A stretch of 64,000 nucleotides of DNA. Origin: Escherichia coli. GTDB lineage: Bacteria; Pseudomonadota; Gammaproteobacteria; Enterobacterales; Enterobacteriaceae. Positions 31,154 through 48,118 of the stretch are shown here, piece by piece (position 1 is the first letter of the stretch; the number at the start of each line of letters is the position of its first letter). The notes beneath the pieces were generated by a model, which was given only the letters and a program-made list of their open reading frames with translations, did no database searches and was not told where the DNA came from. The stretch lies in assembly GCF_044324875.1 (NCBI RefSeq), contig NZ_CP172185.1; one strand, written 5' to 3'. Position numbers and translations under genes: made by a program.

Positions 31154-32158
31154 TTACTGGTCGATGGACAGTTTATGGACACTTTCAGCCAGCGGATTAA
31201 AGCTGATCGCATCCTGTAAAAAGTCCGGTGAAAAATGCGCATACGTCATCGTTTGCTGAATCGTGGCGTGACCCAGGATCCTCTGCAACGTGACGATGTT
31301 CCCGCCGTTCATCATGAAATGCGTGGCGAACGTGTGCCGCATGACATGCGTGGCCTGCCCTTTGGGTAAGTCGGGCTTCACCTCCTGAAGGATCTCCCTG
31401 AAACTGAGATAATCAACCTGATATAACAGGCCGGTCCGGCGGGTTTTAATTAACGGCACAACGGAATCAGCTACAGGAACCGAGCGCGATTTCCCGTTCT
31501 TTGTGTTAAAGAACGTCACCCTGTTACCCACGATGTGTTCCCCGCGAAGCGTTGACGCCTCTTTCCATCTGGCCCCGGTCGAAAGGCACAGAATGGCAAT
31601 GCGTCGTGCATCACCCTCAAGCCGTTTCAGAAGGCGATCAATCTCGTCATCTGAAAGAAAGGCCATTTCTGTATTCTGAACCTTGAGTTTACGTATTCCG
31701 CGCACAGGGTTTTCGTTATGATAAACCTCCGCGTCAATTAACAACGAAAACATCGCAGATAAGGCGCACAGGTCGCGATTGATACTGGACGGCATCAGTC
31801 CCGCCTGCAACTTATCCGAGCGATACTCAATCACGAATTTTCGTGTCATCTGGCTGGCGCGCGGGTCCCCCATTTCACGTATCACCTTCTCCAGTCTGGT
31901 TCTGTAGGTATCACCATATGCCTGATTACGACCATCAAGCATCCACCACACCTCAATCAGTTCTGATAACCGCCGTTGATCGGCGGGCCTTGCCTGCCAC
32001 GGGTTATTGTGGAAATTCTGAAGAACGTATCTTTCGAATTCCTGCGCCTTTGATTTCAGGGTGAAAATCTTACGAATCCGCCTTCCTCCCGCCCCCTGAG
32101 GCCTTACATCAACCTGATAACGTCCGTCTTTGAGTTGCTTAATCGACATGATCAGCAC
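31154..32158 (-). CDS. int: Phage tyrosine integrase (P2 Int-like)
   Basis: 334 aa; conserved ILCLSTGARW...ATHVMRHTFATHFMMNGG...LQRILGH...YAHF (R, H-x-x-R, Y catalytic residues). Confidence 0.93.
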   Translation of the reverse strand: MLIMSIKQLKDGRYQVDVRPQGAGGRRIRKIFTLKSKAQEFERYVLQNFHNNPWQARPADQRRLSELIEVWWMLDGRNQAYGDTYRTRLEKVIREMGDPRASQMTRKFVIEYRSDKLQAGLMPSSINRDLCALSAMFSLLIDAEVYHNENPVRGIRKLKVQNTEMAFLSDDEIDRLLKRLEGDARRIAILCLSTGARWKEASTLRGEHIVGNRVTFFNTKNGKSRSVPVADSVVPLIKTRRTGLLYQVDYLSFREILQEVKPDLPKGQATHVMRHTFATHFMMNGGNIVTLQRILGHATIQQTMTYAHFSPDFLQDAISFNPLAESVHKLSIDQ

Positions 32159-36508: not shown

Positions 36509-36606
36509 GTAACCACTATGCACACACAAAAAAACCGCTTGCCATGCCGCAATCAGTCAGGTTACATTTCCGCTGCACCTCATAAAACGGGTGCCGGGAT
36601 TGCAAC

Positions 36607-36648
36607 CCCCGCTGACAACTACAGCGCACAACCGCGCCAGCGGTTTTT
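36607..36648 (+). terminator. Candidate rho-independent terminator
   Basis: CCGCTG...CAGCGG hairpin followed by T7. Confidence 0.45.
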
Positions 36649-36828
36649 TTGTGCGTACCGTATCGCCACGTCTTTTTCGCGCCAGAATTATGGCGGGGCG
36701 TATGGGGCCGACTTCGGTCGGGCCGGTTTCTGTAGTTGCCGGTGGTTGCAACCCTGTACGTCTCGCCACCCAGAATTGCAACCTCTGGATGGTGAGTTTT
36801 CAAAACTTGCAACTACAGAGGCCACACC

Positions 36829-37540: not shown

Positions 37541-40051
37541 ATGAGCCATCACCACACGCACCTGGCGTACCCGTGGAACGCCCCGCTGCCGGTTATTGAT
37601 CCTGAGACATTCGGCAGAGCATTACCGCAGAAGCCAACCGCATTACAACGGGCAATCCGTGACTACCTCACCGAAGACATTCGCACTGAGGCCCGGCTGG
37701 ATGAAGAAACCGTGGCCTTCCTGACAACCACGGACAAAGGTAAGCAAATTAATTCACACCTTCACCGGGACGAAGAGCGGCAGATAAGGCTGGATAAGCT
37801 GGCACGACACAGACGCGAAAATCCGCCAACGGCGGTATCGGAGGCGATAGCCGAACTTCGCACCCTGCCCTCGTTTCTTGCCAGTGTGTTGATCCGTGAT
37901 CTGGCACGACTGAACCGGAAACAGCAAAGTGCCCGCAGTGAAGGTGTAAAAAACAACAGCGCATACGTGGCCGATAATTTCGTTCGCCGTGGACTGCGTG
38001 CGCGCCTGAAACGTATTGAAAGGGTTAACGACCGCTTTGCAACGCCGGCATTCAAAACCACCGTCGTGCGCCATCGCCTTGAAGAACTGCTCACACTGCC
38101 GCAACTCACCCGTGACGAAATCCAGCGCATCGCCACACTGACAGCCCAGGCATTCGCCGCAGAATTTGAACGCATATGTGATGAAGTTCTTGAACGGACA
38201 GGCAAGGATAATGACAGCCCGGTTATCTGGCTGCTGGCCTACCAGAAGGTGGCACGCACAGCCTTAATTCTGGGCATGGTCCCGCCATACTGGCCGGAAC
38301 TCGAAATCAGGCACAACCGACGCACACCGCCGGACCCTGAACGGGTTCCGGGTGCGGTACTGCGCATCACCTGCGCGACCTGGTGGAACAACCAGTTACG
38401 CCACGTCGCCGATCTCTGGCGGGAGGAGTTACTGCGCGCCGCCGGCAGAGTGTCACGTAAACAATCCCCCTATATCAGCCATGAGTCACTACTGGAGTTC
38501 CGCGAGAAGCGCCAGCGCACCTGTGACTTTCTCAAAAGCTGGGATATTGAAAACGAAGACGGCGAGCGCCTGAGTCTGGAGGACGTGTACTGGGCTGGCC
38601 TGGGTAATCCACGCAACCGCCGCAATGAAATGATGGTCTGCGTCAGAGGGATGGAGATGGTGGCCGAATTACGGGCTGACGTCGCATTCTTCATCACAGT
38701 AACCACCCCTTCCCGCTTTCACAGCGTGAACGAGAACGGCAGCCTGAACCCGAAATACAACGGTGCCACAGTACGAGATGCCAGTGATTATCTGGTTTAC
38801 GACTTCTTCGCAGCCGTAAGAAAAAAAATAAAAAAAGAGGGGCTGGGCTGGTACGGCGTGCGAACCGCTGAGCCACACCATGACGGCACGCCACACTGGC
38901 ATATGCTGGTATTCACTTCCCCGGAGAACGCAGAGCGCATCATCGAAATTATGCGCGAAGCAGCAATTAAATCAGATCGCCACGAACTGGGGGACGATAT
39001 TTCACCGCGCTTTAAATGCGAGAAGATAGACCCGGAAAAAGGCACACCGGCAAGCTATATCGCAACCTATATCGGTAAGAACCTGGACGCCAGCGCTTTC
39101 CACAACAATGATCCGAAAACCGGAAAACCTTACGTTGATGAGGAATCCGGGAAAACCATGGCGGAAACCGTGGAGAACGCCATTGCCTGGGCAAGCCTTC
39201 ACCGCATCCGTCAGTTCCAGTTTTTCGGCATTCCGCCCCGCCAGGTATGGCGTGAACTCCGCCGCCTTGCAAGCCAGATGGAGCGCAACCCGGCATCACC
39301 GAAGCACCTCGATCATGACGATATTGACGCCATTATGGCTGCCGCAGATGTGGGATGTTTTGCCACCTACATCATGAAACAGGGTGGTGTGCTCATTCCG
39401 CGCAACCAGTATCTGGTCCGCACCGCATACGAAACCGCAGACGAAGCCAACGACTACGGTGAATTCCCTCAACGTATCTACGGAATCTGCGCCCCGTCGC
39501 TCGGAGAGCGGTACACCATATGCACCCATCCGGACGAGTGGAAACTGGTTAAAAAAGAAACAATACCAGACAACCGCACGGGCGAGGGTTTTGACCTTCA
39601 GGGCGACCCCGTCGCCCCTTGGACTCGTGGCAATAACTGTCCCCGGGATGAAAAAACAGACAATCACGGACCAGAAAACAGGCAGGACCCCGGACGACTG
39701 ACGCTTCCCGAAGAGAACCTGGAAAGCTGGCTGAATACGTTAAGCAGGGGCGATCGGAGAAAACTGCGTAATCAGATTAAAAATCAGCCGTCGGGCGCAA
39801 AAACCGGACAAAACGACACCACACCGGCATCTGACACCCCTGTAAGGGTGGGGATTGTCGTGCCTGCGGATACCGCGACGGACACGCAAATCGCCCGCGA
39901 ACTTGATGCGCTGGGTGTGCAGTTGCCTGACGCGGCCATCATCTCCGTGCGTAACGGTGCCCGTGTGCGTCTGGATAACGGGGGAACAGCGTACTGGGAT
40001 GAGTCAGCCCGTCACATCATCACAGAGCAGCCAGTGGAGGCGGGAGCATGA
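37541..40051 (+). CDS. Phage replication initiation endonuclease (P2 gpA-like, rolling-circle HUH)
   Basis: 836 aa; HUH-type motif GTPHWHMLVF and tyrosine motif YIATYIGKNLD. Confidence 0.88.
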   Translation: MSHHHTHLAYPWNAPLPVIDPETFGRALPQKPTALQRAIRDYLTEDIRTEARLDEETVAFLTTTDKGKQINSHLHRDEERQIRLDKLARHRRENPPTAVSEAIAELRTLPSFLASVLIRDLARLNRKQQSARSEGVKNNSAYVADNFVRRGLRARLKRIERVNDRFATPAFKTTVVRHRLEELLTLPQLTRDEIQRIATLTAQAFAAEFERICDEVLERTGKDNDSPVIWLLAYQKVARTALILGMVPPYWPELEIRHNRRTPPDPERVPGAVLRITCATWWNNQLRHVADLWREELLRAAGRVSRKQSPYISHESLLEFREKRQRTCDFLKSWDIENEDGERLSLEDVYWAGLGNPRNRRNEMMVCVRGMEMVAELRADVAFFITVTTPSRFHSVNENGSLNPKYNGATVRDASDYLVYDFFAAVRKKIKKEGLGWYGVRTAEPHHDGTPHWHMLVFTSPENAERIIEIMREAAIKSDRHELGDDISPRFKCEKIDPEKGTPASYIATYIGKNLDASAFHNNDPKTGKPYVDEESGKTMAETVENAIAWASLHRIRQFQFFGIPPRQVWRELRRLASQMERNPASPKHLDHDDIDAIMAAADVGCFATYIMKQGGVLIPRNQYLVRTAYETADEANDYGEFPQRIYGICAPSLGERYTICTHPDEWKLVKKETIPDNRTGEGFDLQGDPVAPWTRGNNCPRDEKTDNHGPENRQDPGRLTLPEENLESWLNTLSRGDRRKLRNQIKNQPSGAKTGQNDTTPASDTPVRVGIVVPADTATDTQIARELDALGVQLPDAAIISVRNGARVRLDNGGTAYWDESARHIITEQPVEAGA

Positions 40052-40479
40052 CGCGATTTTGCTGCACCATGCAGCGCCCACAGTTTGAGGCCATCATGCG
40101 CCAGCGTATGCCGGTGCTGACACTGTTCAGGCCTGCCACAAGGCCACAACCGGGCGACGAGCTGGAAATCACGATAGTCAGCCCCGATCGCACCACGGAG
40201 ACCACCATCGCCGACATACTCAACAGGCGGCCGGGCAGCGAGAGCCATAGCTGGACTGTCGTCATTCGTCCGCGCCGTTCGCCGGAGGAACCGGAGCCGT
40301 GCACGCCTGCCGGGAAAATCATGCAGAGATATCACGAAGAGCGGACACGCAGGCACAACGGCGGACTGGCCAGAACACTGAACACAGTCAATCACAAGGC
40401 CGCGCTGGCGCGAATGGTCTTTTCACCACAACGCAATTCATTCGCCAGACCAGCACAGAACGGGAGGAAACAACAGTGA
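40048..40479 (+). CDS. Hypothetical phage protein (143 aa)
   Basis: ATGA overlap with gene A stop; GGAGG SD. Confidence 0.5.
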   Translation: MTRFCCTMQRPQFEAIMRQRMPVLTLFRPATRPQPGDELEITIVSPDRTTETTIADILNRRPGSESHSWTVVIRPRRSPEEPEPCTPAGKIMQRYHEERTRRHNGGLARTLNTVNHKAALARMVFSPQRNSFARPAQNGRKQQ

Positions 40480-40670
40480 GCAGAATATTACTTTTTCTGC
40501 TGTTTTTCGCGCCATTCGCACAATCAGCCACGCCGAACTGCGTAGCGAAAAAGAGCAACACCGTTGTCATTGTCCAGTGTGATGACGGCACGGTAACAAT
40601 CACCGACTCGAGCAAAGGAAGCGTCATTGTCTGCCGTAAAGAGAAACCCTGTCAGCGAACCGAACTTTGA
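40476..40670 (+). CDS. Small putative secreted Cys-containing protein (64 aa, GTG start)
   Basis: N-terminal signal-peptide-like SRILLFLLFFAPFAQSA; overlaps previous stop. Confidence 0.4.
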   Translation: MSRILLFLLFFAPFAQSATPNCVAKKSNTVVIVQCDDGTVTITDSSKGSVIVCRKEKPCQRTEL

Positions 40671-40681
40671 AGGAAAAATAT

Positions 40682-40761
40682 ATGAACAGGAAACAGAAGC
40701 AGGAACTGAAAGGCTTCTTACGTAAAGAAATTGCCAGGCTGGAAGATGTGGAATCTCAGTC
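40682..40761 (+). pseudogene. 5' fragment of small phage gene interrupted by IS21-family element
   Basis: MNRKQKQELKGFLRKEIARLEDVESQS... continues in frame at 43407 once the IS and one copy of the target duplication are removed. Confidence 0.8.
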
Positions 40762-40860
40762 TGCGTATTCCGCTCTATTCGATCACGGATTGGCATCGAA
40801 GTCCGATCAGCGATTCGCATCCATTCGATCAACCGGGAACTTAACTTTTTCTACCGCTTT

Positions 40861-41616
40861 TTAACGCGTTTTTTCGCTGCTTTCCACTACCGGGGGATTT
40901 TTCCTCAGTGACTCTCCCTGAAGGACCACTCGGTGTGAGTTATGTACCAGTCTGTCCAGGATGGCATCTGCTGTTGTTGGGTTCTCCATCAGACCATGCC
41001 ATTTATCTACCGGGAACTGGCTTACCACTATCGTGCTGCTTTGTCCGTAACGATCCTCTATGAGCTCCAGAAGGTCATTACACTGGGCGTTACTTAACTG
41101 TTCCAGCCCCAGATCGTCCAGGATTAGAACCTGTATTTTTTGCAACTGTTTCAGATATTTCAGCCAGCTGCCATCAACACGTCCCTGAGCCAGTTGTTCC
41201 AGTAATCGCCCGGTTCTACAGTACCGGACGCTGTGTTTCTGTCGACATGCCTGTTCGCCCAGCGCATTGGCTATCCAGCTCTTGCCACATCCTGTCGGAC
41301 CGGTTATCAGCAGGTTTTTCCTGTGGGTTATGTAGTGGCCGTTCAGCAGTTCTCTCATCTGTTCAGCCCGCAGACCTCTTGAGGCCGGATAGCGCAGCCC
41401 TTCCGGTGTTGCCTGGTATTTCAGGCCGGCATTTTTTCTCAACCGTGCCACACGGCTGTTTTCCCTGCTCAGAAGCTCGTCATCAACCAGCAGCGTCAGC
41501 CTTTCCTCGAACGACAGTTCGTCGTAGGTCTGAGGCGTTTCCCGCTGCCGTATCAGGCTCCCGGCCATCGCCGGGAGTTTCAGTTGGGTCAGTTTGTTTA
41601 ACAGGTTATCACTCAT
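40861..41616 (-). CDS. istB: IS21-family helper ATPase IstB
   Basis: Start MSDNLLNKL; Walker A GPTGCGKS; 251 aa. Confidence 0.93.
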   Translation of the reverse strand: MSDNLLNKLTQLKLPAMAGSLIRQRETPQTYDELSFEERLTLLVDDELLSRENSRVARLRKNAGLKYQATPEGLRYPASRGLRAEQMRELLNGHYITHRKNLLITGPTGCGKSWIANALGEQACRQKHSVRYCRTGRLLEQLAQGRVDGSWLKYLKQLQKIQVLILDDLGLEQLSNAQCNDLLELIEDRYGQSSTIVVSQFPVDKWHGLMENPTTADAILDRLVHNSHRVVLQGESLRKNPPVVESSEKTR

Positions 41617-41632
41617 ACTGTTGTTCCTTCTG

Positions 41633-43168
41633 TCAGTGGTAGTAGCCCGGACCACGCAGGTTTTCATGCTCTGAAGCATATGCCGGATGTTGTTCGCCCT
41701 GGCGGGATAATGGAAGCTCCAGGTTCTCCCGATGGTGACGCAGCAGATTGTCGATAAAGCGTCTGTCAGGGGCGTTATAGTGCAGGGCAACGTAACAGGC
41801 CTTTTCCAGCCGTTCCGGGCCGTATTTTTTCTGAAGTGCCAGCAGCCCCAGAACTGCACGATAAGCCAGTTCCGGATGGGGTTTTGCCTTCAGCATGGAT
41901 TCAACCACCCGGCCTGTGGACGGGCCCGTACGTTTTCCCTGCTCGATCAGGCGTTCCGGTGTCCATGTCCCGTGCTGCCGGTGGCGCTCTGGCATGTGAA
42001 GCGGATTGGTTGTGTGTTTATATTCATGTGTGCTGCGCGGATGTTGCGCCACACACTGCCCCTTGTGCCAGAGCTGTACCACCGACTGCCCCGCCTTCAG
42101 TGACAGACGCTGACCGACCAGTTCGTGTGGAACGGAGTACCAGTGACGGGCATATTCAACGTGGTAGTCAGGGCCAACCTTCACAGCTTTGTATTCCGTG
42201 TATTCATAAGGTGCCAGAGGCAGCGGAGAGAGTGCTGGCGCATCCAGTATGCGGAAGCGTTCTGCACGGGTTTGATTGCCGTACCCCTTCATTGGCCGGT
42301 TATTCATGTCTGTCAGTAACTCCCTAAGGCGCGCATTCAGCGCCCTGAGCGTGTGGAAGGTTTCATTACGGATGCGGGCAAGAAGCCATCGTTCAACGAT
42401 GAGGACGCCGTTTTCTGCTTTTGGTTTATCTTTAGGTTTGCGTGGTCGGGCCGGGATGATAACCGTGCCATAGTGCTCAGCCAGTGCCTGATAACTGTCG
42501 TTGATGACAGGCTCATATCGATCGGCCTTTTTCACTGCGCTTCTGAGGTTATCGGGGATGAGCAGCTTCGGTACGCCGCCCAGGAAGGTCAGGCAACGGC
42601 TGTGGGCATTTAACCATGACATCATGTCCTGACCTTCGCACGCTTCAACGTAGGTATAGTTGGACGCCCCCATTACGGCCACGAAGATTGCCACGCGGCG
42701 TATCTCACCGGTGTCCGGATTAATAACAGGAACCGTAGGACCACAGAAGTCGATAAAAAGCTTTTCGCCGGCACGATGCTCCTGGCGCATGGAGAGACGT
42801 CGCGTTTTTTTCCACTCCCGGTAGCAACGGCAGAAGTGCGAGTATCCCATCGCTTTGTTACCCGCCTGTGCCTTGTATTCCATCCACAACAGTTGCCGCG
42901 TCACACCTGGTTTTCTCATTTCCGTATCGAAGTACAACATGTCAGGCATTACAAGCTCTGATGCAAAGGTGTCTTTGGGCGGAAAAATGAGTTTCTCCAG
43001 CGTGTCATGGGATATATCAGCAGGTAATGGCCATGACAGAGAAGAGGCTTTGAAGCGGGCAAGAACCTCAAAAACGGTTGAGGCGCTGATGTGTAACGTC
43101 AGTCCGATACAACGGTTAGTCAGCTTCTTGTCGAACTTGAGCTGAAGGATCTTAAAACAGGTTTCCAT
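41633..43168 (-). CDS. istA: IS21-family transposase IstA
   Basis: Start METCFKILQ with AGGAG SD; DDE integrase core region; 511 aa. Confidence 0.92.
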   Translation of the reverse strand: METCFKILQLKFDKKLTNRCIGLTLHISASTVFEVLARFKASSLSWPLPADISHDTLEKLIFPPKDTFASELVMPDMLYFDTEMRKPGVTRQLLWMEYKAQAGNKAMGYSHFCRCYREWKKTRRLSMRQEHRAGEKLFIDFCGPTVPVINPDTGEIRRVAIFVAVMGASNYTYVEACEGQDMMSWLNAHSRCLTFLGGVPKLLIPDNLRSAVKKADRYEPVINDSYQALAEHYGTVIIPARPRKPKDKPKAENGVLIVERWLLARIRNETFHTLRALNARLRELLTDMNNRPMKGYGNQTRAERFRILDAPALSPLPLAPYEYTEYKAVKVGPDYHVEYARHWYSVPHELVGQRLSLKAGQSVVQLWHKGQCVAQHPRSTHEYKHTTNPLHMPERHRQHGTWTPERLIEQGKRTGPSTGRVVESMLKAKPHPELAYRAVLGLLALQKKYGPERLEKACYVALHYNAPDRRFIDNLLRHHRENLELPLSRQGEQHPAYASEHENLRGPGYYH

Positions 43169-43406
43169 AGTGCTCCTGGATTTTCTCTTTCTGGACATTG
43201 ACGTCTCCACTGGTTTAAACACGGCAATGGAGACTGTGGTGAAAAGAGTTAATTCCCGGAGTGACTGGCAGGATGCCAATCAATGATCGGAAGCATGCCA
43301 AATCGTGATCGATTGTGATGCCAAACTGTGATCGGAGATGGATGCCAAATCATGATCGATTCGAATGCCAAACTGCGATCGATTCAGATGCCATTTTGCA
43401 TCAGTC

Positions 43407-43641
43407 ATCAGATATTCCATTCGGAATGGATATCAACGACGCCTGTATGCTCCAGGTATACCGCATAGCTCAGGCTGCACTACAGGCAAAACCGTCAGAT
43501 GGACTGGTTAGAGCAGTACGTTTCTATGAACTGGTAAAGCGTGAGAATCCGCCAGTCGAAACCGGAGCATGGCAAGACGCTGTTGACTGGGTGCTCAAAG
43601 AGGCTTGTCAGGTTGTAAACACTGGCATCAAAGGAGACTGA
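43407..43641 (+). pseudogene. 3' fragment of the IS-interrupted phage gene
   Basis: In-frame continuation SDIPFGMDINDACMLQVYRIAQ...; reconstructed intact ORF about 104 aa. Confidence 0.8.
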
Positions 43642-43642
43642 T

Positions 43643-43852
43643 ATGGCTATTGCCGCAAGTTACACCATGCATCTCTATTGTGATTGTCGCCAGTGTACAA
43701 ATGGTAAATATCAAACGCCAGACTTCGGTGAATATATCGGTACGTCATGGACTGGCTGTGCAAAAGAGGCGCGTAAGGATGGCTGGCGAATAAGCAAAGA
43801 CAAAACTCGTGCTTTTGCGCCCGGGCATAAAGTTTTGAGGATTAACAAATGA
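43643..43852 (+). CDS. Small Cys-rich (zinc-ribbon-like) protein, 69 aa
   Basis: AAGGAG SD; CxC-x2-C plus distal Cys. Confidence 0.5.
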   Translation: MAIAASYTMHLYCDCRQCTNGKYQTPDFGEYIGTSWTGCAKEARKDGWRISKDKTRAFAPGHKVLRINK

Positions 43853-44250
43853 CCACTATAACCAAAGAGCGACTACTGACAATCAGGCAGTGGCGCGAAA
43901 CATACGGACCTGGTAGCAACGTTGTACTGCCAGCCGAAGAAGCGGAAAAACTGGCACGGATTGCTTTGGCATCGCTGGAAGCAAAACCAATAGGTGCTTT
44001 CCACATTGCAGAACAGCAGGTCGATGGCACAAGTGACTACATCAAGGATGGGGAGTACCGCTTGCTGACATCTGAAGAACAAAAGATAGCCCAACTTTTA
44101 GGCGATGCATGGAACCTGTATTTTACATTGCCAGTTGAGCATCCAATGGGTAGAGATGAATTTTGCCGGGCAATTCATCATTGCCAAAATATGGTGTTGG
44201 CACGCCCTGCCATCAGGGCGCTGGCCAGTAAGGGGCAAGGCTATAAATAG
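43849..44250 (+). CDS. Hypothetical phage cargo protein (133 aa)
   Basis: ATGA overlap with previous ORF; GAGGA SD. Confidence 0.55.
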   Translation: MTTITKERLLTIRQWRETYGPGSNVVLPAEEAEKLARIALASLEAKPIGAFHIAEQQVDGTSDYIKDGEYRLLTSEEQKIAQLLGDAWNLYFTLPVEHPMGRDEFCRAIHHCQNMVLARPAIRALASKGQGYK

Positions 44251-44257
44251 ATGAGCA

Positions 44258-44284
44258 AAACGCCCTCCTCCAGGGCGTTTATTT
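44258..44284 (+). terminator. Rho-independent terminator after cargo operon
   Basis: ACGCCCT-CCTCC-AGGGCGT followed by TTATTT. Confidence 0.55.
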
Positions 44285-44287
44285 CAA

Positions 44288-44314
44288 TGCACAATAGTGC
44301 ACAAATTTGCACAA
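44288..44314 (+). repeat. Three tandem 10-bp-phased TGCACAA repeats (candidate operator)
   Basis: TGCACAAtag TGCACAAatt TGCACAAttt at 44288, 44298, 44308. Confidence 0.6.
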
Positions 44315-44738
44315 TTTTTTTGAACGACTTTTTGCCCTTCCGGCCCGTGTGGCGTCTGGATCCGTCGGGGATCCGTGCGTGCACGAAAAAAGGCCTTTTT
44401 CTGCGCGCAGGTGACGGGGGAACAGCCCGCGTTTCAGGGGGTAAATAGCATTCCCTGAACGATGTTGCAGTGACACAACAGAATGGCTGTATTTCTCACG
44501 CTGAGCGTGAAAAAGACGTAAGGGCTTTTGATTTGATGGGGTGAAAGATAAGGCCGTCAAAATCGCACTGAGGCAGCGAGAATATGTCGTCAGAGTTGCG
44601 GGGTTGCGTAAGCATCCGCCCGGCGATGATGGCTACAGGGCTGGAGATGTTGTGAAATTATCTGAAGGAATAACCAGCTTGCAGGAGAACCCGGGCAAAG
44701 TCAGAATAGCGGCAGGCATCAACTCAAAAGAGGATAAT

Positions 44739-45245
44739 GTCATGAGCCACTTTAATGATTTATGCCAGATCAATCGTGAAGCTGAAGAAAAACGCGCTGA
44801 GGCAGCTCAAATTTTGCGGGATGAAGCGGCAAGGCTGATTGATTTCTATGAAGAATGGCTGGGGCTTCCATCCATGTACTGGGAAGACGATGATGGCGAC
44901 CTGCACCGCTACGTGGAGACAGGCTTGCCATGTAAGACAGCGGCGGATTTTAGTCCTCTTTCAGTCCACAATATCGCATCTGCACCAGACAATATTTTCC
45001 GCATGGCCGTGCGAACCTGGGTTAAGTCATCTGACAGCAGCTACCCGGTAAGCGTGGTTATTGCACTTGAATTATATTCAGTAGATGCGGAACGGGTGTC
45101 TCTGAGAGTCCGGGTGGAAGACGATATTTCTGTTCGCGTATTTATCAATAAACCCAGCGAAGAAGCCTGGGGCGATGTTGTTATGCACATGAAAAAGCAC
45201 ATCGCTAATCACCTGAAAAAGCGAGCGCCATCAGCACTTCGTTAA
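44739..45245 (+). CDS. Hypothetical protein (168 aa; possible GTG-extended 234-aa form from 44541)
   Basis: AGAGGA SD before ATG 44739; preceded by ~490-bp structured leader. Confidence 0.5.
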   Translation, partial: VMSHFNDLCQINREAEEKRAEAAQILRDEAARLIDFYEEWLGLPSMYWEDDDGDLHRYVETGLPCKTAADFSPLSVHNIASAPDNIFRMAVRTWVKSSDSSYPVSVVIALELYSVDAERVSLRVRVEDDISVRVFINKPSEEAWGDVVMHMKKHIANHLKKRAPSALR

Positions 45246-45260
45246 GCAGAGCTGGAGAGT

Positions 45261-45285
45261 CGGGGCATAAATTTTTTATGCCCCG
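45261..45285. terminator. Bidirectional hairpin terminator between 168-aa gene and portal gene
   Basis: Perfect palindrome CGGGGCATAAA-TTT-TTTATGCCCCG. Confidence 0.6.
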
Positions 45286-45311
45286 GCGAAGCAGCAGACA
45301 AGCGAAGCGCG

Positions 45312-46367
45312 TCAGGATATGGGCTGGGTGTCTAACAGTGCGTAAGGGTTAAAACGGATCACCTCTTCGCCCAGCCAGTCGTTGACGTGTTTCATTGCTT
45401 CCATGACGGGCATCAGTTCGTTAATGGCAAACACACGGGCTGCCTTCTCCACATCCCCGAATGACCCCTTCTCACCCGGCATGGCCCCCATCAGCTGCGG
45501 CGGTACACGGTGCACGGACAGCACATCATCACGCGATGCAGCCTTGACGTTCATGAACTCATCCTTTGCGGTGATTTGCTGAAACGGCAAAATCTGTACG
45601 CCATCCTTACCACCTCCCGCCGCGTGGATGAGCAGATTTTTAAACGCCCCGCCACCACGCGCGCTTTGCAGTGTTTCCCGCAGTTTTTCCATGCTTTCAC
45701 GGTCAACCTGCGCCGCACCGATGTAGACAATACAGCCCGCGTGTGAGCCGTTATCGTAGTAGAGCTTGCGGAAGATATCGGCGGAATGTGACAGGCTGGC
45801 AGACAGCAGGCCGCCCAGGTAATCCGGCATCCCGTAAATCTCCTGGTTGATATCAGGATTCATCAGGTGGCATATCGTCCCCTCACGAAAGCGGTACTCT
45901 TCCTGTCCTTCCTGTATATACCACCATGATTTCATATCGCTGCCACGTCGCATGTATTTCGCCAGCGCCCGGCGCAGGGCCAGCGGTTCGCCAAGCATGT
46001 TGCGCCGCAGCTCAAGACAGGCATTACCGAACACAAACCAGTCCATCGCCACCCCGGCGAACTCCTGGCGGGACAGCAGAGGATGTGGAATATAGCAGCC
46101 CAGCAGCACATTACGTTTGAAGCTGAGCGCCGACTGGTGCCAGGACGTCTGGCGGGCAGCCCGTGCCAGTCCGTACCAGTCAACGGGCGTTTCAAACCAC
46201 CGCCCGTTGTCGGCGCAGTACATGCTGTCCAGCAGGTCGGCCCCTGACAGCCGGTAAGGTCCTTCAAACGTGAAGGCACTCAGTGTCGGGTCGCTTCGCA
46301 GGGAATCCGCAAGGCTGCCCTGCGCTGCGCGGGCGTTCGTACGTCGTTGTTTATTTTTTCTGCTCAT
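45312..46367 (-). CDS. Phage portal protein (P2 gpQ-like)
   Basis: 351 aa; position and sequence type of P2 Q, adjacent to terminase. Confidence 0.9.
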   Translation of the reverse strand: MSRKNKQRRTNARAAQGSLADSLRSDPTLSAFTFEGPYRLSGADLLDSMYCADNGRWFETPVDWYGLARAARQTSWHQSALSFKRNVLLGCYIPHPLLSRQEFAGVAMDWFVFGNACLELRRNMLGEPLALRRALAKYMRRGSDMKSWWYIQEGQEEYRFREGTICHLMNPDINQEIYGMPDYLGGLLSASLSHSADIFRKLYYDNGSHAGCIVYIGAAQVDRESMEKLRETLQSARGGGAFKNLLIHAAGGGKDGVQILPFQQITAKDEFMNVKAASRDDVLSVHRVPPQLMGAMPGEKGSFGDVEKAARVFAINELMPVMEAMKHVNDWLGEEVIRFNPYALLDTQPIS

Positions 46368-48118
46368 CAGAACTCCGTAACACTGAAGGGGGCGGCATCA
46401 TGTTCACCGCCGACAGGTTCGTTGATAACGGCCAGCATGGTGGCCCATGCAAGATCGCCATGGCTTACGCCTCTTGCGCGATCTGTTTCGTAGGTGATAA
46501 ATCCGGCCTGCGTTTTTGTTTTGCGTACCGCGTTAAAGGCGCTCACCAGTTCGCGCTCGCTGCGGTCGTACTCCCACCGCCCGGCGCGCATGAGCTGCAG
46601 CATCTTCAGAACCAGCGTGCGCTTTGATGACAGGGTGAAGGTGTAGGGAATGGCTGCCGGAAAAAAGCGCTTCACAATCTGATACACCGCATCCCCGTGA
46701 CCGCCGGTTACGTCAATACCGATATGCTCAACGTTATAGCGAAAGGTGAACTCTTCAATCACCTTCGCCTGCGCCTCAAACTCCAGCCCCTGCACCCGCC
46801 GCGTCTCCACGGTGCGAAAACGCCCGCCCGGTACGGCTGGCGGCACCACCACGACAACCGCCCCGCTGTCACCGTTCCCGCTACTGCCGTTGGCGTCGTA
46901 CCCAATCCACACAGGGCGGTTCCCCATCGGACGCGGTGCAAACGGCTTCCAGTCCGGCCACTCGTCGTATCCGTCAACACCGCAGCCAATCAGGATATTC
47001 AGGTTAAATGCCGATTCCCCTTCGCGAGCAAATTCACACATGTAGAGATTGCGGAACTCGTCTTCAGTGTTATTGCGCCGGATTTTGTCAATGTTGGTTA
47101 ACGTCCATCCCTGACTGACCACATCTTCCAGCGTCACAATTTGCCGCCAGATATAGTCAGGACAGATAAGGCCGTTATGAAGCGCATTCCAGCTCACATC
47201 AAAATGCTGACGTTTATGAGTACGAAGCCCTTCATTCCAGTGATCGCCGTTCCAGTATGCATACGCCTCATGTGTTTCACTTGATGGCGTGGAAAAATAG
47301 GTACACCGCAAACCATCCAGCGTTGCCATAGCAGCAGCCACCTTGCGCAGCTCTGCGAAACGCCCCGTCCAGAAAAACTCATCAAAATACAGATTCCCTG
47401 TGTACGCTTGCGCGGTGGCCGCAGAAGTGCCGAGAAAATGCAGCTCTGCACCGTTGGAGAGGATGACTTTATCGCCCCCTTTCAGTTCCACATCAACTTC
47501 AGATGCAGCCTTCTGAATAATGCTTTTAAACTGGAGCGCCTGACGACGAGACGCAGACAAAAAAATCTGGTTACGCTGGTAAGGTTGTGCCACATCGTCA
47601 CGCAGCGCCATCAGCAGCGCTTCCTGCGCAAAATACCAGGTCGCCCCAATCTGGCGGGATTTCAGGATCATCCTGTCAGTAATTCCGGCACGCTCACAGG
47701 CACCGATAGCATCAAGCCATTTGCGCTGGTGTCCGGCCAGCCTGTCGGTAATTTTTTCCCGCAGCGCCGCGATCTGTTCCGGCGTGAAATGATTTTTGCG
47801 TTTTTTCGCCCGGCCTTTCTTTCCTGTTGCCGTCTCATCCGGCAGACCGTCATGCAGCTTTTTAAGCTGACGGGTCAGCAAATCAATTTCCTTAAAGTCC
47901 CCGCCTGTTTTATTCTGTTTTTCCGTGAGCTGAATGAGTCGCGCATCCATGGACTGCGTGACACGCTGAACCGGGGGCGTCTCATCCCACTGGTCGCGTT
48001 TTTTCCACGAATGGATCGTGTTCTGGTTGATACCCATAAGGCGGGAAATTTCCGCAACAGGGTAACCCTGCCAGTACAGCTGGCGTGCCCGCTGGCGAAC
48101 AAATGTATCCTGAATCAT
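46367..48118 (-). CDS. Terminase large (ATPase) subunit (P2 gpP-like)
   Basis: 583 aa; N-terminal HTH, ATPase/nuclease-type body; divergent from scaffold gene. Confidence 0.9.
   Translation of the reverse strand: MIQDTFVRQRARQLYWQGYPVAEISRLMGINQNTIHSWKKRDQWDETPPVQRVTQSMDARLIQLTEKQNKTGGDFKEIDLLTRQLKKLHDGLPDETATGKKGRAKKRKNHFTPEQIAALREKITDRLAGHQRKWLDAIGACERAGITDRMILKSRQIGATWYFAQEALLMALRDDVAQPYQRNQIFLSASRRQALQFKSIIQKAASEVDVELKGGDKVILSNGAELHFLGTSAATAQAYTGNLYFDEFFWTGRFAELRKVAAAMATLDGLRCTYFSTPSSETHEAYAYWNGDHWNEGLRTHKRQHFDVSWNALHNGLICPDYIWRQIVTLEDVVSQGWTLTNIDKIRRNNTEDEFRNLYMCEFAREGESAFNLNILIGCGVDGYDEWPDWKPFAPRPMGNRPVWIGYDANGSSGNGDSGAVVVVVPPAVPGGRFRTVETRRVQGLEFEAQAKVIEEFTFRYNVEHIGIDVTGGHGDAVYQIVKRFFPAAIPYTFTLSSKRTLVLKMLQLMRAGRWEYDRSERELVSAFNAVRKTKTQAGFITYETDRARGVSHGDLAWATMLAVINEPVGGEHDAAPFSVTEF

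Follow-up and report, generated by a model that had tools for sequence, protein, structure and literature searches.

A mosaic gene cargo behind a putative orf91 counterpart in the gpA-gpQ interval of a P2-like prophage of Escherichia coli

Downstream of the replication gene A, the P2-like prophage contained in the analysed DNA stretch (the window, 64,000 nucleotides of Escherichia coli contig NZ_CP172185.1) carries five small genes on the + strand, ORF1 to ORF5. We consider it moderately probable that ORF1 is part of the replication module and that ORF2-ORF5 represent a mosaic cargo of early lytic accessory genes. According to this explanation, ORF2-ORF5 would be foreign, lower-GC DNA that recombination has put together out of small early-gene modules. 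P2-like phages have this pool of modules in common with lambdoid exo-xis/ea regions and P1-like plasmid prophages, and in the case of ORF4 with virulent phages as well. Because there is no room for promoters of their own and a single terminator is present, ORF2-ORF5 would most likely be expressed alongside gpA, driven by the early lytic promoter. By analogy with the exo-xis genes, which are expressed early and influence the choice between lysis and lysogeny (PMC10834534, PMC8614690), they may have a non-essential role in host modulation, in counter-defence or in the tuning of lysis and lysogeny.

Gene A, ORF1 and the layout of the interval

Gene A (37541..40051, + strand), which provides the context of the cargo, is an ORF of 836 aa named replication endonuclease by PGAP in identical copies, and its homologues have Pfam Phage_GPA on record. 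The final ~400 nt of the gene are lineage-specific, and 80% or more of the 3' end was present in only 24 of 5426 genomes. The initial annotation described five coupled ORFs on the same strand behind gene A, one of them split by an insertion sequence (IS), in the slot where P2 carries orf91, tin and old. [quoted passage not shown] Two details were amended, since ORF2 starts with GTG and a sixth gene of the interval, ORF6, had been left out. Each of ORF1-ORF5 matched a PHROG family (E 4e-10 to 6e-82) and this, together with the pattern of codon substitutions in ORF1 (see below), indicates that they are more than chance ORFs. The earlier statement that no protein was recognisable is valid for Pfam, NCBIfam and PADLOC alone, which returned nothing for ORF1-ORF5.

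ORF1 (40048..40479, + strand; 143 aa) starts with an ATG that overlaps the gene A stop codon (ATGA), with a GGAGG 7 nt upstream, and its translation would be coupled to that of gene A. In the AF2 prediction, of which one model out of five was confident, residues 1-76 form a DUF3850/ASCH-like PUA-fold barrel and residues 87-124 a long basic helix. In P2, orf91 encodes a DUF3850 domain protein directly after gene A, and the same PDB entry, 3iuw, is matched by ORF1 and by P2 Orf91 from the equivalent position. ORF1 differs from the 109-aa P2 protein in its length and in the additional long basic helix; profile comparison of the two gave no sequence similarity (hhalign probability 0.2%), and Pfam PF12961 found no match in ORF1. 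Fold and position nevertheless point to ORF1 as the counterpart of P2 orf91 and as a gene of the replication module. Its place after a gpA of ~840 aa is invariant while the content downstream changes, and with respect to a 94.5% identical relative it shows 18 synonymous and 6 non-synonymous codon changes, 19 of the 24 substitutions being at the third position, a pattern that indicates purifying selection. We have therefore withdrawn ORF1, initially counted as cargo, from that group, as a conserved companion of gene A that would probably bind nucleic acids in early replication.

An intrinsic terminator (44258..44285, + strand), with a hairpin and a T-run made up of AAACGCCCT, 5 nt, AGGGCGTTT and then ATTT, closes the A-ORF5 transcription unit. 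A consensus scan of the + strand from 38165 to 45400 gave no sigma-70-like site, a result with which a promoter within coding sequence, or read-through in lysogens, may still be compatible. The terminator is followed by a conserved non-coding block of ~390 bp (44283..44665), with three GCACAA repeats and several hairpins, which is common to P88-like phages regardless of the cargo upstream. This block is probably the cos/packaging region, and a candidate cohesive-end sequence, GGTGACGGGGGAACAGCCC, has 13/19 matches to P2 cosL when compared by eye. Between the block and the end of Q lies ORF6 (44739..45245, + strand; phrog_5091), probably of 168 aa: the PHROG match begins at residue 67 of a 234-aa ORF, and the start that PGAP uses in the IS-less copy L001 is lost here to a 1-nt indel. 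ORF6 is missing from P88 and FDAARGOS_943, and neither a Pfam match nor a tblastn match in phages was obtained. A bidirectional terminator (45261-45285) precedes the portal gene Q (45312..46367, - strand), the right border of the hotspot.

The gpA-gpQ interval is a published variable hotspot of P2 (Rousset et al. 2022, PMC9122126), and the arrangement seen here corresponds to six hypotheticals in Table S5A of the same study. The variability assumed for the locus was confirmed, in that related prophages differ from ORF2 onwards. GC content is 0.59-0.60 in the 3' end of gene A and in ORF1 as compared to 0.47-0.52 in ORF2-ORF5. The locus is a proven defence hotspot, which is a counterpoint to the early accessory reading; in the sister P4 hotspot, 6 of 8 tested unknown loci were defensive (bioRxiv 10.64898/2026.02.27.708500).

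It might be supposed, as in the initial annotation, that ORF2-ORF5 or a subset of them constitute a novel anti-phage or superinfection-exclusion system of the prophage, like tin and old. The site and its differing content among relatives speak for this possibility, as do the 19% of P2-like prophages with only unknown genes at the locus, the 15-32% of the proteins of such genes that are antiviral by machine-learning score, and ORF2, a small predicted exported protein of a type sometimes used for exclusion. However, no defence model of PADLOC was matched by any protein and no enzymatic or sensor domain was found; translation of all the genes is coupled to that of gene A and no promoter-like site is present, unlike the situation of tin and old; and the cargo does not vary among the 22 genomes that have the full ORF1-ORF3 segment. 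We judge a defence function improbable, and a system expressed in lysogens like tin/old unlikely. What stands of the defence-cargo interpretation is that ORF2-ORF5 are a lower-GC mosaic cargo; no sign of a known defence system accompanies it.

ORF2, ORF3 and the IS21-family insertion

The start codon of ORF2 (40476..40670, + strand; 64 aa) overlaps the stop codon of ORF1 (GTGA). The N-terminus is hydrophobic and signal-peptide-like, with an AQS/A cleavage-like site, and the mature part contains four Cys, so that ORF2 is predicted to be a small exported protein. It matched phrog_20764 (E 4e-10) and phrog_11462 (E 1e-8), and tblastn gave weak matches in Erwinia jumbo phages only. In the relative L005, an unrelated hydrophobic protein of 55 aa takes its place.

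ORF3 (104 aa) is split by the IS and uninterrupted in IS-less copies (L001:6683-6997); at full length it is 93% identical to gp20 of phage P88. Alignment to the intact L001 ORF assigns codons 1-26 plus 2 nt to the 5' fragment (40682..40761, + strand), and in the 3' fragment (43407..43641, + strand) the junction motif RIAQAALQAKP is encoded along with a C-terminal domain, C3 (phrog_26213). The N-terminal module, N3, is joined to different tails in L005. The insertion is an IS21-family element of 2639 bp (40762..43400, - strand) with TG...CA ends and terminal repeats consisting of multiple GCCAAA(T/C)NNTGATCG, and it encodes istA (within 41633-43279) and istB (within 40861-41859), both on the - strand. 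It is flanked by a 6-bp target-site duplication, TCAGTC (left copy 40756..40761, right copy 43401..43406), and IS-less alleles are 2646 bp shorter. Copies found elsewhere, 99.7-99.8% identical, are annotated as "IS21 family transposase / ISSso4 family IstB". The insertion inactivates ORF3, and ORF4 and ORF5 have probably lost their link to upstream transcription. This event, and the ISEc12 present in ORF6 of another strain, fit with the cargo being dispensable.

ORF4, ORF5 and their exchangeable modules

ORF4 (43643..43852, + strand; 69 aa, phrog_926) is a stand-alone small alpha/beta protein. It carries a conserved set of Cys and His residues (candidate Zn ligands C13, C15, C18 and H62), in agreement with its earlier description as zinc-ribbon-like, and is probably Zn-binding; no solved structural relative was found. 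Its family (153 clusters at 50% identity) occurs in exo-xis regions of Stx phages, in P1-like phages and, among virulent phages, in early regions of Ackermannviridae and of T1-like phages.

ORF5 (43849..44250, + strand; 133 aa), whose start overlaps ORF4 (ATGA), is a chimera of an N-terminal module, N5 (residues 1 to ~47-72), and a C-terminal one, C5 (residues 73-133, phrog_13916). N5 is common to more than 3600 proteins with other C-termini, mostly DUF551-containing, and C5 is a separate ORF directly after gpA in Yersinia phage vB_YenM_42.18. By megablast, the RBS of ORF4, ORF4 itself and the start of ORF5 (~46 codons) form a recently exchanged block (43625..43985, + strand), to which Stx phages and P1-like phages have sequences of 93-96% identity. 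In a 30-nt profile, identity stops at the LEAKP junction motif, sharply so with respect to Stx2 phage 86. A 149-aa Stx2-phage protein combines N5 with the C3 domain of ORF3, the latter 73% identical. ORF3 and ORF5 share one design, in which a conserved N-terminal module terminates in RIAxAxLxAKP and is joined to a swappable C-terminal domain.

The occurrence of the ORF3, ORF4 and ORF5 modules outside P2 hotspots disagrees with the idea of defence genes bound to the hotspot, and a defence function is further disfavoured by the conservation of the ORF4 family among virulent phages and by the location of the ORF3 and ORF5 modules in delayed-early exo-xis regions.

The ATGA overlap had been taken to indicate that ORF4 and ORF5 work as a pair. 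They might form a two-component module, toxin-antitoxin-like or adaptor-effector, in which a constant Zn-binding protein is combined with a partner of hypervariable C-terminus. An ORF4-family gene followed by an ORF5-type modular gene with a 4-nt overlap is indeed a recurrent order, usual in temperate phages: it is found, with ORF4 at 45-47% identity, both in Klebsiella phage GP-1 and on two contigs of enterobacteria that encode partners with differing C-termini, and again in Stx and P1-like phages, although the close cases in the latter are one recently exchanged DNA block and are not independent. The pairing is not obligate, because in Ackermannviridae, Rogunavirus, VLCpiS10a and two metagenomic contigs the homologues of ORF4 close their operon or stand beside unrelated genes. 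Moreover, the more than 3600 N5-type proteins outnumber the ORF4 clusters (databases and clustering levels differ), and no likeness to any toxin-antitoxin family was found. We hold such a module to be improbable.

Another view, to which we give very little credit, is that the cargo has no function and is only carried along, as selfish recombination debris decaying in the prophage. The two IS insertions and the chimeric architecture would suit decay, and in ORF5 the PGAP annotation is limited to the initial 135 nt, as a partial pseudogene; yet the 402-nt ORF is intact, reading frames are uninterrupted in the 22 genomes, RBS and coupling are retained, and every module comes from a conserved family kept across distant phages. 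Early accessory cargo is the reading that we retain.

Comparison with known systems

With the P2 tin/old hotspot the interval shares the position between gpA and gpQ, adjoining cos, and a content that varies among relatives. The tin and old genes are read from the opposite strand and have mapped transcript starts and a promoter of their own, active in lysogens, whereas the genes described here are on the strand of gene A, coupled to it, small, devoid of defence domains and PADLOC-negative. The closest sequenced phage, P88 (Xuanwuvirus), shares the portal and terminase layout and also the ~390-bp block before Q, but there ParM and a partition protein come after a gpA of 940 aa, and ORF1, ORF2, ORF4, ORF5 and ORF6 are absent.

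The exo-xis/ea genes, which are early-operon and non-essential, and among which the Ea22 architecture has been described as mosaic (PMC10834534, PMC7093339), belong to lambdoid phages, whereas the genes in the window belong to a P2-like myovirus. By hhalign, ORF4 and lambda Ea8.5 are unrelated (probability 0.35%), ORF5 gave no alignment with lambda Ea22, and the Pfam search for Ead_Ea22 and DUF551 gave no match, so that the likeness to Ea22 is architectural only. It lies in the conserved N-terminal part joined to swappable C-terminal domains, as in Ea22 and its DUF551-containing variants, and Stx phages carry homologues of C3, ORF4 and N5 in the stretch that separates exo from int/xis, as in the lambdoid exo-xis and P22 "ea" regions.

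Gene organization between gene A and portal gene Q

The prophage is P2-like and of the P88/Xuanwuvirus type, with an integrase gene near 31154-32158 and the portal Q and terminase P genes at 45312-48118. Gene A, which encodes a replication endonuclease of 836 aa (37541-40051), is followed on the same + strand by ORF1 (143 aa, 40048-40479), ORF2 (64 aa with a GTG start, 40476-40670), ORF3 (104 aa, present in two pieces, as defined from ORF calls and intact copies without the IS), ORF4 (69 aa, 43643-43852) and ORF5 (133 aa, 43849-44250). An intrinsic terminator, made of a hairpin and a T-run, lies after ORF5 (44258-44285), and Q (45312-46367) forms the right border of the interval. Gene A and ORF1 overlap by ATGA, ORF1 and ORF2 by GTGA, ORF2 and ORF3 are separated by 11 nt, ORF3 and ORF4 by 1 nt, and ORF4 and ORF5 again overlap by ATGA. 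A Shine-Dalgarno motif was read ahead of every start, from ORF1 to ORF5. Both the ORF calls and the reading of the sequence thus confirmed the five tightly coupled rightward ORFs described in the initial annotation.

These ORFs are true genes, because all of them match PHROG families and because ORF1, compared with a 94.5% identical relative, shows an excess of synonymous codon differences (18 synonymous and 6 non-synonymous). The view that none of the proteins is recognizable holds for Pfam and NCBIfam, which gave no significant domain for ORF1-ORF6, but PHROG families were matched by all six proteins of the interval, including ORF6, the last gene before Q.

ORF3 is interrupted by an element of 2639 bp (40762-43400) that belongs to the IS21 family, as it carries istA and istB, multiple terminal repeats, TG...CA ends and a short target duplication. 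It is 99.7-99.8% identical to copies annotated as IS21 family transposase/IstB. The 6-bp duplication, TCAGTC, borders the element on both sides, and about 20 complete E. coli genomes contain an otherwise 99.6-99.7% identical locus without the IS, in which ORF3 is intact at 104 aa. Both observations bear out the earlier proposal that a 104-aa ORF is split by an IS.

Rfam found no RNA family within 40000-45300. Farther upstream, just before gene A and a 'derepression protein' ORF, it revealed two RNAs, an isrK-like sRNA at 36575-36650 (60 bits) and a C4 antisense RNA at 36686-36773 (80 bits). They indicate that the prophage has a putative P1/P7-type circuit of antisense-RNA immunity or antirepression.

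Limits of the variable region

The interval between gpA and gpQ is a cos-proximal variable hotspot in P2-like phages (Rousset et al. 2022, PMC9122126), and the supplementary table of that study lists the present arrangement (WP_000196517 + WP_001080487 + ... + WP_000086827) as six 'hypothetical' proteins. The genes studied here occupy exactly this place, between gpA and gpQ and next to cos. The locus had been described as variable; this is true for ORF2-ORF6, which differ between related prophages and are replaced by other genes in loci L005, L006 and L007-L012 and in P88, the closest sequenced phage, but not for ORF1, which is constant after a gpA of about 840 aa. The combination of ORF1-ORF3 with the gene A allele of the window is rare: of 5426 complete E. 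coli genomes, 22-24 have it, with no variation in the cargo.

In fact, ORF1 homologues with 65-76% identity are always found directly 3' of a gpA of 839-842 aa, with the same 4-nt overlap, while the remaining interval is wholly different: it holds an Ead_Ea22 protein and Ogr in one lineage, and MarR-like, TumE and HVO_A0114 genes in another. The GC content of ORF1 agrees with that of the gene A 3' end (0.59-0.60 in both), and falls to 0.47-0.52 from ORF2 on. ORF1 therefore belongs to the replication module and is not part of the cargo, to which it had initially been assigned.

The MarR-like, TumE (PF20126) and HVO_A0114 genes accompany the same gpA-ORF1 pair in L011 (5621-6939) and L012; this set is a candidate toxin-antitoxin or defense cassette, unlike the cargo of the window. 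It was also observed that gene A is lineage-specific over its final ~400 nt (39650-40047), which encode the C-terminal ~135 aa of gpA, and that this tail co-varies with the ORF1 family. An internal part of the gene (~39300-39680) has matches in 2446 genomes and the 3' end in only 24, so that the variable region effectively starts within gene A.

An AlphaFold model of ORF1, built from 18 homologues and confident in only the best of five models, shows a confident beta-barrel (residues 1-76) followed by a long helix (residues 87-124). This small predicted barrel with one helix is PUA-like and can be superimposed on ASCH structures. At the sequence level, PF12961 and PF04266 (DUF3850/ASCH) were unmatched even at E<=10, the ORF1-family profile found no ASCH entry among PDB sequences, single interval sequences found nothing in the PDB, and tblastn of ORF1 against 50,697 phage records gave no match. 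P2 orf91, annotated as a DUF3850 domain protein, overlaps the stop of P2 gene A by 4 nt, and its sequence matches PDB entry 3iuw (E 5e-11), which is the same entry as for ORF1; profile comparison detected no sequence similarity between ORF1 and orf91. On account of the shared position after gene A and the shared PDB entry, ORF1 is, by position and predicted fold, the counterpart of P2 orf91, a correspondence recognized here for the first time.

At the other end of the interval, the terminator is followed by a non-coding block of ~390 bp (44283-44665), which P88-like phages share at about 90% conservation whatever the upstream cargo, and which contains three GCACAA repeats, a GGATCC-centered hairpin and other inverted repeats. 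The cos/packaging region is probably located in this block. No copy of the P2 cos 19-mer exists at up to 3 mismatches; near 44411-44429, GGTGACGGGGGAACAGCCC agrees by eye with the P2 cosL 19-mer at 13 of 19 positions. Between the block and Q lies ORF6 (168 aa, phrog_5091), which most likely starts at ATG 44739 and ends at 45245. The start used by PGAP, which gives a longer ORF (44541-45245), is doubtful because a 1-nt indel with respect to other strains removes its ATG and because residue 67, the first one covered by the PHROG match, coincides with ATG 44739, which is preceded by a good RBS. P88 lacks ORF6, which is thus an inserted gene; tblastn found no homologue of it in 50,697 phage records, and in strain NRZ14408 it is interrupted in turn by ISEc12.

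Mosaic composition of the cargo

The N-terminus of ORF2 is hydrophobic and bears an AQS/A-type cleavage motif, and the predicted mature part contains four Cys. The slot of ORF2 is taken by an unrelated 55-aa hydrophobic protein in the close relative L005, and outside E. coli prophages only weak matches were found, in Erwinia jumbo phages.

ORF3 and ORF5 are chimeras, with only the junction motif RIAxAxLxAKP in common. The N-terminal 55 residues of ORF3 are joined to two other tails in L005, and its C-terminal domain (phrog_26213) is present in Stx phages. ORF5 carries a DUF551-type N-terminal module: among more than 3600 proteins, the majority ending in DUF551, many are 90-96% identical to its residues 1-~72. 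The DUF551 domain (PF04448) is absent from ORF5, whose C-terminus has no Pfam match and corresponds to phrog_13916. The P2-like Yersinia phage vB_YenM_42.18 has residues 73-133 as a stand-alone ORF directly after gpA, and a Pseudomonas phage has them at the C-terminal end of a protein of 153 aa. Modules of both proteins are combined in a 149-aa protein of the Stx2a phage Stx2_13518, which over its first 60 residues matches ORF5 (75% identity, E 1e-28) and over its last 52 residues ORF3 (73% identity, E 4e-24). At the DNA level, the block 43625-43985, consisting of the ORF4 RBS, ORF4 and 46 codons of ORF5, is 93-96% identical in Stx and P1-like phages, and this identity ends exactly at the junction motif. 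These results demonstrate, for the first time, that the cargo is exo-xis-type mosaic material.

Two annotations of ORF5, like that of the ORF6 start, could be corrected. RefSeq/PGAP calls the first 135 nt of ORF5 a C-terminally truncated pseudogene (43849-43983, equivalent to 7205-7339 of L001, a copy without the IS), because this stretch matches the abundant DUF551-type N-terminal module; the 402-nt frame is intact, and the pseudogene call is wrong. With members of only 52-153 aa (L015:1201-1662, L014:4031-4189), phrog_13916 has almost certainly acquired its 'DNA ligase' label through the propagation of a mis-annotation. Membership of ORF5 in the Ea22 family was rejected, since BLASTP against lambda Ea22 yielded no alignment; Pfam Ead_Ea22 (PF13935) matched neither ORF3 nor ORF5.

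ORF4 belongs to phrog_926, a widespread uncharacterized family of candidate Zn proteins, whose conserved Cys/His residues are newly described here. A full HMMER scan gave 153 clusters at 50% identity, which are stand-alone proteins of 60-80 aa. An alignment of 70 homologues shows conservation of C13 (100%), C18 (91%), H/C62 (97%) and an ARxxGW motif, with a fourth ligand position at C15 (74%), C57 (59%) or C59 (29%); ORF4 of the window carries C13, C15, C18 and H62. This conservation of ligand positions makes a four-ligand metal site plausible in the family. The initial description of ORF4 as zinc-ribbon-like thus survives for the Cys/His ligands, but not for the predicted fold, which has no likeness to known zinc ribbons or treble clefs. 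The only match from profile searches, a weak one of ORF4 to the ZF-HD homeodomain (E 0.015), was rejected: AF2 does not model ORF4 as a three-helix bundle, and hhalign found no similarity to lambda Ea8.5, a homeodomain/zinc-finger hybrid (probability 0.35%). Among larger proteins with an ORF4 domain there is no consistent fusion partner: one contains HTH_17 and one, the family member P0067, has a C-terminal tail resembling by eye the Lar restriction-alleviation proteins. P0048 (134 aa) is a tandem duplication of the domain, with two matched stretches of 92% identity, and matches in proteins longer than 800 aa are repeat artefacts.

Members of the ORF4 family were found between exo and int in the exo-xis region of Stx phages, in P1-like phages, and in early gene clusters of the strictly virulent Ackermannviridae and T1-like phages. 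The overlap of ORF4 and ORF5 had suggested that they work as a pair. Of 13 genomic contexts compared, 6-8 have a modular protein of the phrog_60/660/3323/250 type as the next gene, usually with a 4-nt overlap, although several close cases represent one recently exchanged DNA block and are not independent. Homologues of ORF4 with just 45-47% identity also have modular partners, with differing C-termini. The arrangement therefore recurs, but it is not obligate, since 5-6 of the 13 contexts (virulent phages and three others) contain ORF4 without an ORF5-like neighbor; this loose coupling to proteins with the modular N-terminus is a further new observation. A type II toxin-antitoxin pair is not supported, given that co-occurrence is not obligate and that PADLOC, Pfam and NCBIfam gave no toxin-antitoxin family match for ORF4 and ORF5.

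Possible role of the cargo

In lambdoid phages, the delayed-early exo-xis genes are expressed early and modulate the choice between lysis and lysogeny (PMC10834534, PMC8614690). Because the cargo has homologues in such delayed-early regions, and also in the early regions of virulent phages, ORF2-ORF5 would most likely have an accessory role early in the lytic cycle, in host modulation, counter-defense or developmental tuning. A literature search on the PHROG identifiers found nothing.

A defense function expressed in the lysogen is a minority possibility that we judge quite improbable. Its prior is not negligible, as machine learning rates 15-32% of unknown P2 hotspot proteins as antiviral (bioRxiv 10.64898/2026.02.27.708500). 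However, none of the six interval proteins had a significant match in PADLOC-DB v2 (five had no match and ORF3 a single non-significant one, to PDC-M28C, E 0.016), so that the search for a known defense system at the locus was negative, and no defense-type domain was found in Pfam or NCBIfam. The gene arrangement also differs from that of P2: whereas P2 tin and old are on the opposite strand, with their own mapped transcript starts near cosR, the ORFs of the window are on the gene A strand and directly after gene A, where there is no intergenic space and a consensus scan, which cannot prove absence, detected no promoter-like site.

A more specific proposal, which we advance tentatively and consider unlikely, is that phrog_926 and the translationally coupled next gene, with its conserved N-module and hypervariable C-domain (phrog_60/660), may form a widespread and so far undescribed two-gene early module of temperate enterobacterial phages. 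In such a module a constant partner and a swappable targeting domain would neutralize host defenses or redirect host functions; alternatively, the two genes might constitute a new exclusion system. If the pair were a counter-defense or host-takeover module, thousands of 'DUF551-type' prophage proteins would gain a function.

The locus reveals no new mechanism; it adds one more gene arrangement to those of a known hotspot, drawn from catalogued but uncharacterized phage families. It shows that the contents of the P2 gpA-gpQ defense hotspot are not all defense genes. From ORF2 onward, the cargo is the same mosaic early-gene material as that of the lambdoid exo-xis regions, and documents an exchange of modules among P2-like, lambda-like, P1-like and even virulent phages.
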